Of a stretch of 64,000 nucleotides of DNA, positions 32,840 to 38,791 are shown piece after piece; within the stretch, counting starts at the first letter, position 1; the number at the start of each line of letters is the position of its first letter. The DNA is taken from sequence record OZ035742.1; one strand, written 5' to 3'. The stretch is from Felixounavirus AN17P8. Both the position numbers and the translations under genes were made by a program. Under the pieces are notes generated by a model, which saw only the letters and a program-made list of their open reading frames with translations, did not search any database and had not been told where the DNA came from.

Positions 32840-34621
32840 ATGAGTAAGTCACTTTACGCAGTACCAGCAGGTCTTAATGCAGATGCTTACAAGGCATCAC
32901 ATATATATCAGTATCCAGATGCTACGCAATATCTTATGTTGAACCTAACACCACGTAGCGACAAATGGTTTAACAGTCCTTTAGCAATTGATGGTGTAGT
33001 GGCTTTTGGTATTCAACGTTTTGTTAAAGATTACTTGATAGACCACTGGAACGCCACTTTCTTTGAACGTGATAAAAAAGAAGCAATTGACGAAATCTTA
33101 GAAGTTATGAATGGTGTTCTGGGTAAAGATGCTATCGGTCGAGAGCATTGGGAAGCACTTCACGACTTAGGCTATCTACCAGTTGAAGTGTACGCTGTAG
33201 AAGAAGGTACAGTTGTTCCTATGCGTGTCCCAATGATTGTCTTCCAGAACACTGTTTCAGGTTTCCATTGGGTAGCAGGTTATCTGGAAGACGCTTTCTC
33301 TGCTGAGATTTGGAAGGCTTGCACCATTGCAACTATTGCATTGCACTACAAACGTATCTGTAAGAAGTGGGCTGACCTCACTTGCGACAACGACTTGCAT
33401 TTACCTTATCAGTGCCATGACTTTGCTATGCGTGGTATGTCCGGCTTTACTGATGACGCATTCAACGCTGTAGGACACTTAACCAGCTTTAAAGGGACTG
33501 ATAGCTTCCCTGCTGTATACACGGCTAAACGTATCTATGGGCAGACCTATCCAATCTCTGATATTGGAAGCTCTGTACCAGCCACTGAACACTCTGTAAT
33601 GTGTGCAAACATTGCTTGGGAAGGTGGTAACGAGTTGGTTGAAGAAGAAAGACGATTTAAAGGTGAGTTGCAAACCTTCCGTCGTTTCTTAACAGAAACT
33701 TACCCAACTGGTATTGCAAGTATTGTTTCAGATACTTATAACTTCTGGAGAACTGTGTCAGAAATCTTACCAGCACTTCGTAAAGAAATTATGGAACGTG
33801 ACGGTAAGCTGGTAATTCGCCCTGACTCTGGAGACCCTGTACACATTGTCACAGGTTATAAAGCAATCCACTTAGAGTGTGCTAAGAAGGCTTATTATGA
33901 GCACCTAAGCAAGCTGGAAGCTAGTGACACAATGTTGAATGCTGTTCTGAACATGAAGCTTGAAAACATCAACTATGGTATTGCTGGATGGCTACTGTCA
34001 GAAGGCTACGAAATGGTTGTTGACAGAGAAGACTTTGAAGTTGCTGATACAGTGATGTTGAAAAATGCTTATATGGTCGGTTCTGCAAACGTTGTAACAC
34101 GTCCTGTAGCTGAAATTGATGGAGCTATTAAGACACTGTACAACATCTTTGGGGGAACTATTAACTCTAAAGGGTTTAAGGTACTGGATGAACATATCGG
34201 CCTTATCTATGGTGACTCTATCACGCTGGAACGTGCAAACGAAATCCTGAAGCGTCTGTATGAAATGGGTTTTGCAAGCTCTAACGTAGTGTTTGGTGTA
34301 GGCTCTTACACTTACCAGTACATGACTCGTGACACCTTTGCATTTGCTGTCAAAGCAACTCTTGCAAGCATTGGTGGTAAAGAGATTATGCTTGCAAAAG
34401 ACCCTAAAACAGATAGTGGTGTTAAGAAGTCTGCCTTTGGTGGTGTAGCACCTATGTGGGACGGTGATAAGCTGAAAGCTGTAGATGGATATGGATTCCA
34501 GAGTTTTGCAGATGTACTTGACCACCCAGCCTGTGCTTTACGTTTAGTCTTTAGTGACTCTGAGCAGTTCGGTTACACGACTCTTGGTGATATTCGAAAT
34601 AATATTGACAAGCAGCTTTAA
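32840..34621 (+). CDS. nicotinamide phosphoribosyltransferase (NAMPT)-like enzyme; candidate nicotinamide ADPR transferase
   Basis: 593-aa NAMPT-family protein: N-terminal YKASHIYQYP, VFGVGSYTYQYMTRDT region; terminator follows. Confidence 0.8.
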   Translation: MSKSLYAVPAGLNADAYKASHIYQYPDATQYLMLNLTPRSDKWFNSPLAIDGVVAFGIQRFVKDYLIDHWNATFFERDKKEAIDEILEVMNGVLGKDAIGREHWEALHDLGYLPVEVYAVEEGTVVPMRVPMIVFQNTVSGFHWVAGYLEDAFSAEIWKACTIATIALHYKRICKKWADLTCDNDLHLPYQCHDFAMRGMSGFTDDAFNAVGHLTSFKGTDSFPAVYTAKRIYGQTYPISDIGSSVPATEHSVMCANIAWEGGNELVEEERRFKGELQTFRRFLTETYPTGIASIVSDTYNFWRTVSEILPALRKEIMERDGKLVIRPDSGDPVHIVTGYKAIHLECAKKAYYEHLSKLEASDTMLNAVLNMKLENINYGIAGWLLSEGYEMVVDREDFEVADTVMLKNAYMVGSANVVTRPVAEIDGAIKTLYNIFGGTINSKGFKVLDEHIGLIYGDSITLERANEILKRLYEMGFASSNVVFGVGSYTYQYMTRDTFAFAVKATLASIGGKEIMLAKDPKTDSGVKKSAFGGVAPMWDGDKLKAVDGYGFQSFADVLDHPACALRLVFSDSEQFGYTTLGDIRNNIDKQL

Positions 34622-34636
34622 AAGTATATGATAAGA

Positions 34637-34658
34637 GGCTCCTACGGGAGCCTTTTTA
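34637..34658 (+). terminator. rho-independent terminator
   Basis: GGCTCC-tacg-GGAGCC-TTTTT after NAMPT-like gene. Confidence 0.6.
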
Positions 34659-34674: not shown

Positions 34675-35010
34675 ATGAAAATCAAAGAGATGAATATTAA
34701 CGTTGTCTTGGAAGAACGCTGGGAAAACATTAAGAAACCTGAAGATGGTAAAAAGTTTCTTAACAAAATTTTAGTAGCGGCTAAAGAAGAACTGACGGGT
34801 AAGGTTGCAGCAGCAATCACAATAAAGGTTTGTGTAAAAGGTCTTCCACAACATCACCAATTTGCACTTGACGAGTTTAAAGAAAGCTTCTACAATCCAA
34901 ACAAACAGATGCTTGAAAGTAACTTTGCAGTATCTACAAGTATCGTCCATGACAGAAGCTTTATCCTTTACAAAAACATGAGAGGTGAGTCATGCAAGCA
35001 TATTGGATAG
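34675..35010 (+). CDS. hypothetical protein
   Basis: 111 aa, RBS ggag. Confidence 0.4.
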   Translation: MKIKEMNINVVLEERWENIKKPEDGKKFLNKILVAAKEELTGKVAAAITIKVCVKGLPQHHQFALDEFKESFYNPNKQMLESNFAVSTSIVHDRSFILYKNMRGESCKHIG

Positions 35011-35168
35011 AAATTTTACTGTCACTTGGTAGTGTAGCAGTATTTGTTTACCTTCTTTGCAAGTACTATGCAGAGCACAAGAAGTGTGACTACTGTAACG
35101 GAGAAGGGTACACAAGAGCAGGCTGTTGCCCTATGTGTGGTGGTTCTGGTAAAATGTTTAATAAGTAA
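34992..35168 (+). CDS. small membrane-anchored protein with DnaJ-type zinc finger (58 aa, below track cutoff)
   Basis: RBS gagaggtgag; TM helix ILLSLGSVAVFVYLL then CDYCNGEGY...CPMCGGSG (two CxxCxGxG repeats). Confidence 0.4.
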   Translation: MQAYWIEILLSLGSVAVFVYLLCKYYAEHKKCDYCNGEGYTRAGCCPMCGGSGKMFNK

Positions 35169-35196
35169 TTTAACAGTAAACTAAGAGGAAAGTATT

Positions 35197-37563
35197 ATGC
35201 GCATGGTAAACGACCACGCAGAAGTGATTAAGAGTTCAACTTCTTTGGAGACATCTCAAGCACAGATTACAATGACACCTGAAATGTTTAGCCTTCTGAG
35301 TTCTGGTGTATACACGTTTAAAGAGCGAGCAGTGATTCGTGAACTGTCATGTAACGCAGTAGATGCTCAGAAAGAAGCTGGAAAAGAAAACATCCCATTC
35401 CATGTGCATTTACCTACTCGATTTGAGCCTTACTTTGAAGTCCGTGACTTTGGAACTGGTTTAACCCACGACAAAGTAATGAGTTTGTATCTGAACTACG
35501 GGGCTTCTACGAAGAATGACTCTAATGATTACATTGGTGCAATGGGTATCGGCTCAAAATCCCCATTTGCAATTGCTCAGTCATTCACAGTATCTAGCTA
35601 TGTTGATGGTGTTGTTAATAAGTACTCTGTTTACCTTGAGAATGGTATCCCTCAAGTGACTAAGCTTACTACTAACCCAACAAATGAACCTAATGGCTTA
35701 GCTGTACGTGTGGCAGTTGCTGACCACCGTATTTCAAAGTTCTTTGAAGAGGCTGGTCACGTATATTCATACTTTGCTGTAAAACCAGAAAGTAACATTG
35801 TATATGATGACGTGTTAGCAGATATGAACGTCATTGCTCGTGAAGAAGGTGTTTATGACGCTATGATTCATAAGCAAAGCTGGCGTTCTAGTGGTAACAG
35901 GACAGAGTTTAATGTGGTGATGGGTAATATTGCCTATCCAGTGAACATGGAAGCATTACTTGGTGATGATTTCTTCAAAGTCTTGCCAGAGTTTTTCCGT
36001 AGGAGCGTAGACCTTGTAAACATCTACATGCCTATTGGTTCAGTTGCTATAGCAGCTTCTCGTGAAGCATTGCAGATGAATGATACGACAAAAAATGTTA
36101 TCATTGAGGCAACTAAAAAGATAACTGAAGCAATTACAAAGGATGTTATCAAGAAAGTTAATAGTCAACCTACACTCATGGATGCTGCACAGGCTTATGC
36201 TGAGTTACGTTTGAACTCACGAGAAATGTTTAATGCTGTGTGTCCAAAGCTAGAGTGGGGAGGTGTTAAGCTTGATTCTCTGGAAGAAGAATTGCTAAAC
36301 ATTCGTCGTGGGATTATCTACGCAGAAGACGGCTCAGTCATTTATGAACGTGACGGTAAAGGCAATATTAAGGTTGATAGGAACGGAAACAACATCCCTA
36401 AAGTAGATTATCTTTATAACCCAGTTGCTTATGTCAAGTTCAACTCTTTAGAGAGTAAGGTTCGTGCAACAGCACTTTCCTACACTCAAGAGGCAAGTAT
36501 GTTCAATATCTTTGGTGCAATGCGTAAGAGCCAAATTGAACAGTTTTTGTTCGTGATTAATGACCGCCGCAATAAAAACGGTACTGAGAAGACTGTAGGC
36601 CGCAATCAGATTCTGCGTGGTGCATGTCGAGACTATGCCAGTGAGTCAAGTCTGTTTCACAGATACAATGGTATTGTGTTTGTATTCTCGACTGAAAAAG
36701 AGTTAGATGATTTAATCAATCTACACAAACTTGATAAAAGCTTGTTAAAGATTGTGAAAATGTCTGATAAGGAACACCATTACCAGCGCAAAGAAGCTGT
36801 AAGAGGTGTTGTAAAACTCTGGAAAGCAGTTCCAGCAGAATCTGTAGCTTCATACACAGAGGTGTCAGAAGACTTAGACACAATTGAAGAGCCTCAGCTT
36901 TACATTAAGGCAGTAGGTGACACAGTTGATGGCAAATGCTTTTGCTCATCTCCAGAAGATGTAGCTAAGTCAGTTGCTAATGTTATAGGGAAGACAGTCT
37001 ATGTTTTCCGAAAAGCAAATTGGAAAAAGATACCAGAAGACTGGATTGAAGTAGATGAGAAGCTCTTGAACGACAGCTTAACTGATGTTCACTGGATTAA
37101 TCATAACAGGTATATGACACGCATCTACATGAATGGTGTTCTTGACCTTACAAGCAGTTGGATTATTGCCAGAAACTTTACATTCAATAACAGGAAGATT
37201 TCTCGTGGTTATTGCTACTCACGAGATACTAGCAAAACTATCTTCCTAGAAGGTAACGAAGAGGCTGTAGAGGCAATTTTCGGTAAAATCCAGTATGTTG
37301 CTGCACCGTTTGCATACACTTACACTATTAGTGTGTTGAAGACTTTGAAAGAATGTCTTGACAATGATACAAAGCTTTACAAGAAAATTAAGAAAGCTGG
37401 CGACCGCATGGTTATTAAGTTGGCAAACTACCTTTCAAAAAGAAAACAAGAAAACTTCTTGCTTTCCCATTTAGATTGGAATAAAGTGTCACCTATTGAA
37501 GTGAGTAAGTTTTTGGGCTTTAATGTGAAATGTGTTCCAGAAGGTACAACAGTTTACGATTAA
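35197..37563 (+). CDS. rIIA-like protein with N-terminal GHKL ATPase fold
   Basis: GHKL boxes ELSCNAVDA, VRDFGTGL, GAMGIGSKSPF; ~790 aa; followed by an rIIB-sized gene. Confidence 0.55.
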   Translation: MRMVNDHAEVIKSSTSLETSQAQITMTPEMFSLLSSGVYTFKERAVIRELSCNAVDAQKEAGKENIPFHVHLPTRFEPYFEVRDFGTGLTHDKVMSLYLNYGASTKNDSNDYIGAMGIGSKSPFAIAQSFTVSSYVDGVVNKYSVYLENGIPQVTKLTTNPTNEPNGLAVRVAVADHRISKFFEEAGHVYSYFAVKPESNIVYDDVLADMNVIAREEGVYDAMIHKQSWRSSGNRTEFNVVMGNIAYPVNMEALLGDDFFKVLPEFFRRSVDLVNIYMPIGSVAIAASREALQMNDTTKNVIIEATKKITEAITKDVIKKVNSQPTLMDAAQAYAELRLNSREMFNAVCPKLEWGGVKLDSLEEELLNIRRGIIYAEDGSVIYERDGKGNIKVDRNGNNIPKVDYLYNPVAYVKFNSLESKVRATALSYTQEASMFNIFGAMRKSQIEQFLFVINDRRNKNGTEKTVGRNQILRGACRDYASESSLFHRYNGIVFVFSTEKELDDLINLHKLDKSLLKIVKMSDKEHHYQRKEAVRGVVKLWKAVPAESVASYTEVSEDLDTIEEPQLYIKAVGDTVDGKCFCSSPEDVAKSVANVIGKTVYVFRKANWKKIPEDWIEVDEKLLNDSLTDVHWINHNRYMTRIYMNGVLDLTSSWIIARNFTFNNRKISRGYCYSRDTSKTIFLEGNEEAVEAIFGKIQYVAAPFAYTYTISVLKTLKECLDNDTKLYKKIKKAGDRMVIKLANYLSKRKQENFLLSHLDWNKVSPIEVSKFLGFNVKCVPEGTTVYD

Positions 37564-37567
37564 GTGC

Positions 37568-37597
37568 TTGACAAGGGGCTTCAAAGCCCCTTAGAAT
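37568..37597 (+). promoter_or_regulatory. sigma70-like promoter for rIIB-like gene, hairpin in spacer
   Basis: gcTTGACAagGGGCTTCAAAGCCCCtTAGAAT; spacer holds a perfect GGGGCTT/AAGCCCC stem. Confidence 0.5.
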
Positions 37598-37641: not shown

Positions 37642-38751
37642 ATGACTACTAAAACTAAAGCACAGATTGACGCAGAAATTTACAAACTGGTTAAAGAGGG
37701 TAAGCTGACTAAAACAGCTATTGCACAGAAATTTAACACCTCAACACGTTCAGTTGGTCGTGCTGTAGAGCGTCATGAAGCAACCTTAAAAGGTAAGAAA
37801 AAGGTAGCTTCTAAACCAGCTACGAAGACTTTGAAGCAAGTTGCTAAATCAGTTAAAAAGAAAGCTGGAAAACCAGTTGAAAATGTTGTTAAAGAGACTG
37901 TACAAAAGGCTCCGGTAAATAAACTACACGAAGCTATGCAGAATGGTAACCAGATTGAGTATATGATTACTGGCGATTCTATTATCATGACTTTTGGTGC
38001 AGATTCTGAAATCGTTGAATCTACCCATCCGAACTACAAAGAAATCGTAATGGCTGTTGTATCCGGTGAGTATAAGAAAGCTTTCGAACTGATGAACATT
38101 CGTAAGTCTATCGAAAACTTCACTCAGGGTGCTATCACCATCAAAGGTGACAAGTTATTCTATGGTGCTGTTGAGATGCGTTCTACTCTGGTTGACCGTA
38201 TTCTTCACATGATGAAGACTGGAGATAAGGGTTTTGAACGCCTTGTGATGTTCTTCGAAAAACTGATGGAAAACCCATCTAAAGATTCTGTAGAACAACT
38301 TTGGGGATTCGTATCTCACCTTGATGTTGAAATTGATGAAGAAGGCTACATCATTGGTTGGAAGAAAGTCTCTACTCGTGAAGGCAAGCTGGTTGACTCC
38401 CACACCTACAGAGTTCCTAATGATTTGGGTAACATTGTAGAAATGCCACGTTGGATGGTTGATAATAACCGTAACGTGACTTGCTCTCAAGGTCTTCACG
38501 TTGGTGCTTGGGATTACGTTCGTTGCTTCTCAGGCGACACAATCCTGAAGGTTCGTGTCCATCCACGAGACGTTGTATCCGTACCAACTGATTACAACGA
38601 TATGAAGATGCGCTCGTCTCGTTATGAAGTTGCAGCAATCGTTGATAATCAACGTAAAGTGCTGAAAGCATGGGATGGCAAGACTGAAGCTTTACATGTC
38701 ATCGTCGGTACTGCTGGAGAACTTATCTCCCAACGTAAACGTGAAATCTAA
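37642..38751 (+). CDS. rIIB-like protein
   Basis: Position after rIIA-like gene; N-terminal HTH-like LTKTAIAQKFNTSTRSVGRAV; own promoter. Confidence 0.45.
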   Translation: MTTKTKAQIDAEIYKLVKEGKLTKTAIAQKFNTSTRSVGRAVERHEATLKGKKKVASKPATKTLKQVAKSVKKKAGKPVENVVKETVQKAPVNKLHEAMQNGNQIEYMITGDSIIMTFGADSEIVESTHPNYKEIVMAVVSGEYKKAFELMNIRKSIENFTQGAITIKGDKLFYGAVEMRSTLVDRILHMMKTGDKGFERLVMFFEKLMENPSKDSVEQLWGFVSHLDVEIDEEGYIIGWKKVSTREGKLVDSHTYRVPNDLGNIVEMPRWMVDNNRNVTCSQGLHVGAWDYVRCFSGDTILKVRVHPRDVVSVPTDYNDMKMRSSRYEVAAIVDNQRKVLKAWDGKTEALHVIVGTAGELISQRKREI

Positions 38752-38768
38752 TAAGTAATTTCTTAAAA

Positions 38769-38791
38769 GGCTGCTTCGGCGGCCTTTTTTA
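38769..38791 (+). terminator. rho-independent terminator
   Basis: GGCTGC-ttcg-GCGGCC-TTTTTT after rIIB-like gene. Confidence 0.6.

Follow-up and report, generated by a model that had tools for sequence, protein, structure and literature searches.

Anti-TRAP (RtpA) of Bacillus, a protein of ~53 residues that acts by binding another protein, carries two CXXCXGXG motifs; both bind zinc, without which the protein can neither form its oligomers nor function (PMC2896485). The Cys-rich domain of DnaJ/Hsp40 (PF00684; 1exk) contains four repeats of this motif and two zinc sites, and DnaJ further comprises a J domain, a G/F region and C-terminal substrate-binding domains. Among the DnaJ-like proteins that lack a J domain, the Arabidopsis FtsH5-interacting protein (FIP, At5g02160) combines a transmembrane (TM) anchor with a C4 zinc finger whose two CXXCXGXG motifs face the stroma; two-hybrid and pull-down assays have shown the protein to bind FtsH5 (PMC5915565). 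In phages, half-DnaJ modules with two CXXCXGXG motifs have been noted without functional study in an insert of HMO-2011-type DNA polymerases and in gp45 of Acinetobacter phage Loki (PMC9038755; PMC5313236). Here we analyse a small gene in a 64,000-nucleotide (nt) stretch of Felixounavirus AN17P8 (sequence record OZ035742.1; hereafter the window), located directly upstream of a rIIA homologue. Its 58-residue product, referred to below as the mini-protein, belongs with the J-less DnaJ-like and anti-TRAP-like zinc-knuckle proteins, here TM-anchored and in a phage.

The open reading frame (ORF) of the mini-gene translates to MQAYWIEILLSLGSVAVFVYLLCKYYAEHKKCDYCNGEGYTRAGCCPMCGGSGKMFNK (58 residues). 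Its GAGGTGA element is a 7-nt match to the Shine-Dalgarno consensus with 3 nt between its end and the ATG, and the site is kept in relatives as GAGAGGTGAG, or as GGAGA in other genera. Across 22 distinct Felixounavirus alleles, the ratio of non-synonymous to synonymous polymorphism (pN/pS) is 0.089 in the frame of the mini-gene; the two alternative frames give 2.0 and 0.91. Third codon positions account for 30 of the 43 variable sites, and the in-frame value for Mooglevirus is 0.15. The mini-gene is a genuine coding gene under strong purifying selection in its own frame. An earlier first-pass annotation, made from the sequence alone, had proposed a real 58-residue ORF with a strong ribosome-binding site and a single TM helix, a proposal borne out by the Shine-Dalgarno match, by the in-frame selection and, for the helix, by the hydropathy and structure model described below; the reading frame, whose lack of conservation in related phages had been set beforehand as refuting, is conserved. 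The description of the gene as unannotated holds at most for the track on which that reader worked, as the mini-gene is annotated in most related GenBank records. The labels there are hypothetical protein or (putative) membrane protein (Bas63 bas63_0083; Tribble, citing Felix O1 NP_945023.1), and in phage Mushroom 'heat shock protein; DnaJ-like, contains cysteine-rich domain', of which 'heat shock protein' over-states what the mini-protein is. The protein is already catalogued (phrog_3931, function unknown), with copies in the genomes of hundreds of phages, and should be seen as the product of an uncharacterised accessory gene and not as a discovery.

The N-terminal part of the mini-protein is hydrophobic (residues 5-23, WIEILLSLGSVAVFVYLLC; Kyte-Doolittle mean 2.1), with a nearly invariant Glu7 at the N-terminal edge of the predicted helix. 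An AlphaFold2 (AF2) model built from a 12-sequence alignment (predicted local distance difference test score, pLDDT, of 71) shows a helix over residues 3-28 and then a small beta knuckle, with no helix after the knuckle. The sequence contains two CxxCxGxG motifs, which are the only two found in a six-frame translation of the entire window; in 200 trials with random sequences from a first-order Markov model, single motifs averaged 0.2 and an adjacent pair never arose. A profile of the family matched the Cys-rich domain of E. coli DnaJ (1exk) at E 1.4e-10, the best-scoring stretch lying ungapped on repeats 3-4, and anti-TRAP (3lcz, residues 10-33) at E 6e-4, again ungapped. Because these alignments are ungapped, the 6-residue spacer between the motifs is equal in the mini-protein, in DnaJ repeats 3-4 and in anti-TRAP. 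Taken alone, the mini-protein scored below the cutoffs of the family models: 15.6 bits with Pfam DnaJ_CXXCXGXG (PF00684; gathering threshold 32.7, the best E-value among 12 family members being 3.3e-5), 18.6 bits with DUF5351 (cutoff 27) and 17.6 bits with TIGR02349 (cutoff 377). Pfam and NCBIfam returned no J domain for the 58 residues. The mini-protein of the window had no match at E up to 1 with Pfam Anti-TRAP (PF15777) or with the PADLOC models, and five of the 12 family members matched PF15777 at E 0.03 or weaker. A lambda Q-like zinc finger was considered and rejected, since its matches were no more than marginal, at E 0.02-0.06 with no stretch passing, and the mini-protein lacks the remainder of Q. 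In a Foldseek search of the PDB with the AF2 model, anti-TRAP came out on top (3ld0 and 2bx9; root-mean-square deviation 1.0-1.7 Å over 24-28 residues) at E-values of 0.65-0.8, which are not significant because the domain is tiny. Against BFVD, the model retrieved proteins related to it (Sf18, RB49, Arno18) along with numerous further phage proteins that are small and uncharacterised.

The first-pass annotation had read the motifs as a DnaJ-type zinc finger. Both motifs are indeed homologous to the DnaJ Cys-rich domain, sharing the CxxCxGxG pattern and the spacing of repeats 3-4, but they make up half a domain, with two repeats in place of four and one zinc site in place of two, and the J domain, G/F region and C-terminal substrate-binding domains are all absent. 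At a length of 58 residues, with just two motifs and lacking a J domain, the mini-protein is not a DnaJ; as half of a Cys-rich domain it would hold one zinc site and so resemble anti-TRAP more than DnaJ. We strongly infer from these sequence comparisons a single-zinc, anti-TRAP-type knuckle on a TM helix, in which zinc binding is predicted. Anti-TRAP (2bx9, 3lcz, 3ld0) is of similar length and has the same adjacent pair of motifs and 6-residue spacer, together with the ungapped profile match and the best fold match. In contrast to the mini-protein, with its N-terminal TM helix and almost nothing after the knuckle, it is soluble and trimerises via a C-terminal helix. Its target is also unrelated: to our knowledge, enterobacteria have no TRAP. 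Of the analogues whose partner is known, the nearest in architecture appears to be FIP, which shares with other J-less DnaJ-like proteins (OR, CYO1) a single membrane anchor followed by two CXXCXGXG motifs on the cytoplasm-equivalent side; the comparison is between described architectures, with the topology of the mini-protein taken from charge bias, and FIP differs in being a plant chloroplast protein with a transit peptide. The phage half-DnaJ modules and the small knuckle proteins in BFVD likewise have two CXXCXGXG motifs, stand-alone or inserted. Whereas the phage modules are soluble, or embedded in enzymes or Q-like proteins, the family described here adds a conserved TM helix.

Zinc sites of the Cys4 type depend on a reducing compartment. 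No family member has a Lys or Arg in the N-terminal tail (1-7 residues), which in most members contains an acidic residue, and every member has one to four Lys/Arg within the first 15 residues after the helix. Given the tail free of positive charge, the positive charges after the helix and the requirement for a reducing compartment, the mini-protein is likely to lie N-out/C-in with the knuckle in the cytoplasm. Our confidence goes no higher because the positive-inside signal is weak in Mooglevirus, Suspvirus and Pectobacterium phage Wc4-1, where the flank C-terminal to the helix is net acidic.

The region around the mini-gene is 96-97% identical to Felixounavirus genomes, for example Salmonella phage Si3 and Escherichia phage JohannRWettstein (Bas63), and the Bas63 mini-protein (bas63_0083, g83) is identical to that of the window. 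Copies with at least 90% identity occur in 214 phage records (tblastn), and the hidden Markov model of phrog_3931 is matched at E 9.2e-34 (116 bits), residues 1-58 aligning to profile positions 1-59 of 59. More distant homologues, at 36-57% identity, are found in Mooglevirus, Suspvirus, Ounavirinae of Pectobacterium (Wc4-1, Arno162) and Krischvirus-type T4-like phages (RB49, Phi1 ORF046). When 1.8 billion representatives were searched exhaustively with the profile, few additional small relatives of full length came to light (P0023, P0054, P0099, P0106, P0114), and every other match was DnaJ itself or a protein with multiple CxxCxGxG repeats. Of the 80 loci picked up by a degenerate DNA pattern drawn up by hand, five held true family members, the divergent metagenomic locus L084 being one of them. 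The family is confined to Ounavirinae and some Krischvirus-type T4-like enterobacterial phages. Weak tblastn matches in a Vibrio phage (outside any annotated ORF) and in Synechococcus S-RIM2 (within a 285-residue protein) were not accepted as members. Over 14 sequences, down to 25% identity, the invariant residues are M1 and the four Cys and four Gly of the two motifs (C32, C35, G37, G39, C46, C49, G51, G53). A few deposited genomes carry a 63-residue allele (P0003, P0005, P0006, P0007; e.g. phiWec177 and GE_vB_B3), in which a frameshift right after the first CxxC motif leads into the +1 frame with loss of the second motif; these are either sequencing errors or natural loss-of-function variants.

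We postulate that the mini-protein is probably an accessory, membrane-tethered zinc-knuckle module for protein binding in Felix O1-type phages, its structure being well supported and its adaptor function proposed by analogy. Under this model the mini-gene would be transcribed from a host-type promoter, translationally coupled to the preceding ORF111 and, in Felixounavirus, co-transcribed with rIIA. The product would be bitopic in the inner membrane, with its uncharged 4-residue N-terminus in the periplasm, a TM helix carrying the conserved Glu, and a C-terminal tail of ~30 residues in the cytoplasm, where Cys32, Cys35, Cys46 and Cys49 would bind one Zn2+ in a single DnaJ-type knuckle as in anti-TRAP. 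The knuckle would then offer a protein-protein interaction surface at the membrane and recruit or sequester an inner-membrane partner, either of the phage (ORF111, RIIA/RIIB) or of the host (FtsH, DnaK or a defence effector), and a membrane partner may also be contacted by the conserved N-terminal face of the TM helix (YW-x-E...S). The gene is probably non-essential and of use under certain conditions, in host takeover or defence evasion. Three points speak for such an accessory character. First, the mini-protein is the most diverged product of its block, at 36-56% identity; over the same six loci, RIIA shows 40-68% and NAMPT 50-90% (RIIB, compared at the three loci that reach it, is 67-86% identical). 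Second, frameshifted alleles exist in sequenced phages, which suggests, if they are not sequencing errors, that the mini-gene is dispensable in culture. Third, according to the PhageMaP preprint on Bas63, the lysis and membrane genes of that phage are mostly non-essential (PMC11482910).

Several observations weigh against the adaptor model. Our literature searches returned no experiments on the mini-protein's expression, topology, zinc binding or partners, and a transposon-mutagenesis preprint does not extend to this phage group; the fold matches lack significance; and the charge signal for a cytoplasmic knuckle is weak in three lineages. In the text of the PhageMaP preprint, g83 is not named among the counters of QatABCD (PMC11482910). 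Moreover, in Krischvirus-type phages the mini-gene lies away from rII, overlapping the stop codon of an nrdH-like glutaredoxin gene and preceding 55.2.

One alternative, possible though on balance unlikely, makes the mini-protein an RII cofactor, that is, a factor that tethers RIIA/RIIB, themselves without a TM helix, to the membrane or helps to assemble them, and that acts with them against membrane-depolarising abortive infection such as RexAB or QatABCD. Its appeal lies in position. The mini-gene is directly upstream of rIIA in all Ounavirinae examined (Felixounavirus, Mooglevirus, Suspvirus, Wc4-1 and the metagenomic loci L041, L042 and L084), even in Wc4-1, a phage without ORF111, and in L084 and L041, where identity is 38%, and on the divergent P0099 contig it is followed by a rIIA N-terminus 82% identical to that of the window. 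The 28-nt gap to rIIA in the window contains no terminator-like site, and Bas63 rIIA/rIIB (g84/g85) counter QatABCD according to the same preprint (PMC11482910). However, Ounavirinae genomes are broadly syntenic, so that adjacency is weak evidence, and the QatABCD counters reported there are g84 and g85, with no mention of g83 in the text. The position of the Krischvirus copies makes the rII linkage subfamily-specific and not family-wide. T4 has a different gene, rIIA.1, directly upstream of rIIA; we rejected it as a positional homologue, its sequence being unrelated, with no Cys and no hydrophobic segment. Lastly, the spacer between mini-ORF and rIIA is 58-67 nt long in Mooglevirus and Suspvirus and contains a TTGACA...TATA promoter-like element in the former (L004, L031-L036) and a TGCAGAG...CTCTGCA hairpin in the latter (L005, L037, L042; L042 additionally has TTGACA). 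Neither type of element is present in the spacer of the window, and rIIA may be transcribed differently in those genera. Judged by gene arrangement, the firmest coupling of the mini-gene appears to be that to ORF111.

It is rather unlikely, in our assessment, that the mini-protein modulates host membrane quality control, with the knuckle docking on an inner-membrane or membrane-proximal machine of the host, either the protease FtsH, as in plant FIP, or DnaK, mimicking a zinc centre of DnaJ, and thereby altering proteolysis or chaperone use. The matching architecture of FIP, with its demonstrated binding to FtsH5 (PMC5915565), and the homology to the DnaJ Cys-rich domain are in keeping with this proposal. 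Against it, analogy is its only basis, the likeness to FIP being one of described architecture, and we found no evidence for FtsH binding by the phage protein. A single, highly conserved host target also fits poorly, as the residues between and around the motifs vary considerably among genera. The broader idea of the first-pass annotation, that the mini-protein could modulate a host chaperone or membrane protein, is plausible. Should the mini-protein act as an RII cofactor or inhibit a host membrane machine, this would open a way into the RII mechanism and give a function to a widespread class of tiny zinc-knuckle phage proteins.

A bolder proposal, which we hold to be quite doubtful, treats ORF111 and the mini-protein as a fast-evolving, translationally coupled pair that forms a new membrane-localised counter-defence or host-takeover module, the knuckle capturing a host protein (a defence effector, FtsH or DnaK) alongside or upstream of RIIA/RIIB. 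According to the PhageMaP preprint, the Bas63 counterpart lies between two counter-defence blocks: the NAD-salvage genes g79/g80 (PRPP-synthetase-like and NAMPT), which counter the NAD-depleting defences Sir2-HerA, retron Ec86 and hhe, and rIIA/rIIB (PMC11482910). If the proposal were true, a function would be defined for the first time among the many small phage 'half-DnaJ' knuckle proteins. Phage membrane proteins of small size often escape notice or study; the mini-protein, which is well conserved, can be tested cheaply, and genetic tools exist for it since the Bas63 protein is identical to that of the window.

An opposite orientation (N-in/C-out) is improbable. The four Cys would then form disulfides in the periplasm, without zinc, and the protein would act in lysis timing or superinfection exclusion in the manner of T4 RI, Sp or Imm. 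Such a role would suit a small phage protein with one TM helix that adjoins genes labelled 'lysis inhibitor', and it would suit the net acidic C-terminal flank of some genera. The N-tail nonetheless lacks a Lys/Arg n-region throughout the family, and the strict glycine pattern of CxxCxGxG is that of zinc knuckles in reducing compartments. Unlike genes for holins, antiholins and superinfection-exclusion proteins, the mini-gene is not linked to an endolysin or holin, neither being present in its unit; its neighbours are NAMPT, ORF111, rIIA and rIIB, and the upstream promoter is of host type, not late.

Still more improbable is a thiol-disulfide redox factor with catalytic CxxC pairs, along the lines of the oxidoreductase activity that has been described for DnaJ (PMC8262869). 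The overlap with the nrdH-like glutaredoxin gene in Krischvirus-type phages would accord with it, but no redox gene adjoins the copies in Ounavirinae, the invariant Gly residues speak for zinc in a structural site, and the domain is too small for a substrate-binding fold. That the ORF is spurious, or conserved for a non-coding reason, as its shortness and the few frameshifted alleles might suggest, is effectively refuted by a low pN/pS in the mini-ORF frame only, by start codon, Shine-Dalgarno sequence and motifs conserved down to 25-38% identity, and by the absence from the region of any Rfam family at threshold (the Rfam matches there were sub-threshold and due to chance).

Table 1. Features of the mini-gene locus; positions refer to the window, except in the last row, where they refer to the named loci
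Feature	Position	Strand	Remarks
Mini-protein gene (phrog_3931)	34992..35168	+	58 codons, ATG start; stop codon included in the coordinates
Shine-Dalgarno sequence GAGGTGA of the mini-ORF	34982-34988	+	Within the 3' end of ORF111
Predicted TM helix of the mini-protein, residues 5-23	35004..35060	+	Hydropathy, AF2 model, E7 conservation
First CxxCxGxG motif, CDYCNGEG	35085-35108	+	C32, C35, G37, G39 invariant
Second CxxCxGxG motif, CPMCGGSG	35127-35150	+	C46, C49, G51, G53 invariant; 6-residue spacer from the first
ORF111 (phrog_4262, function unknown)	34675..35010	+	Last 19 nt overlap the mini-ORF
Sigma-70-like promoter TTGACA-16-TATGAT	34605..34632	+	11/12 consensus match; at the end of the NAMPT gene
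Terminator-like hairpin and T-run	34633..34656	+	Abuts the promoter -10; annotated as a terminator in phage Tribble
rIIA homologue	35197..37563	+	phrog_612, E 9e-189; 28 nt after the mini-ORF
rIIB homologue	37642..38751	+	phrog_609, E 2e-88
Terminator-like hairpin	38765-38788		After rIIB
Krischvirus-type nrdH/mini-gene loci	L006 2236-2653; L043 4742-5177; L044 255-699		Genes overlap in all

The arrangement upstream of the mini-gene qualifies one further claim of the first-pass annotation, which had placed it at the start of an rIIA-like operon. The mini-gene does lie immediately upstream of rIIA, but it is preceded by ORF111 with a 19-nt overlap, so the unit begins earlier. This overlap is conserved in Felixounavirus, Mooglevirus, Suspvirus and the divergent locus L084. 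ORF111 has no match in Pfam, NCBIfam or PADLOC, and its AF2 model (pLDDT 51) is too poor for a structure search. At 41-66% identity across genera it diverges almost as fast as the mini-protein, of which it may be a functional partner. A programmed -1 frameshift that would fuse the two products was considered and rejected: a TGA stands in the mini-ORF frame two codons before the ATG, and the overlap, on reading the sequence, contains no slippery heptamer.

Transcription of ORF111, the mini-ORF and rIIA likely starts at the sigma-70-like promoter at the end of the NAMPT gene, as its sequence would indicate. Promoter and hairpin are conserved together in Felixounavirus and Suspvirus, where variants in stem and loop keep the pairing. 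Since the promoter ends where the hairpin begins, its transcripts would begin within the 5' arm and so avoid termination by the hairpin, whereas read-through from NAMPT would terminate. A weak promoter-like match at 35170-35198 was treated as chance. A second strong promoter-like site, between rIIA and rIIB (TTGACA-18-TAGAAT, 11/12, at 37568-37597) may give rIIB a promoter of its own.

The remaining observations concern the flanking genes. At the Krischvirus-type loci, a CxxC redox protein stands beside the Cys4 knuckle. In the window the NAMPT gene is at 32840-34621; related phages have a ribose-phosphate pyrophosphokinase gene upstream of it, the two corresponding to Bas63 g79/g80, and in some relatives (Mushroom, L042) an HNH homing endonuclease is inserted beside NAMPT. 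Between NAMPT and ORF111, some Felixounaviruses, among them Bas63 and Tribble, have an extra hypothetical ORF of 114 residues (L002 2176-2520; L003 2176-2520) that is absent from the window, an insertion/deletion polymorphism at an intergenic hotspot.

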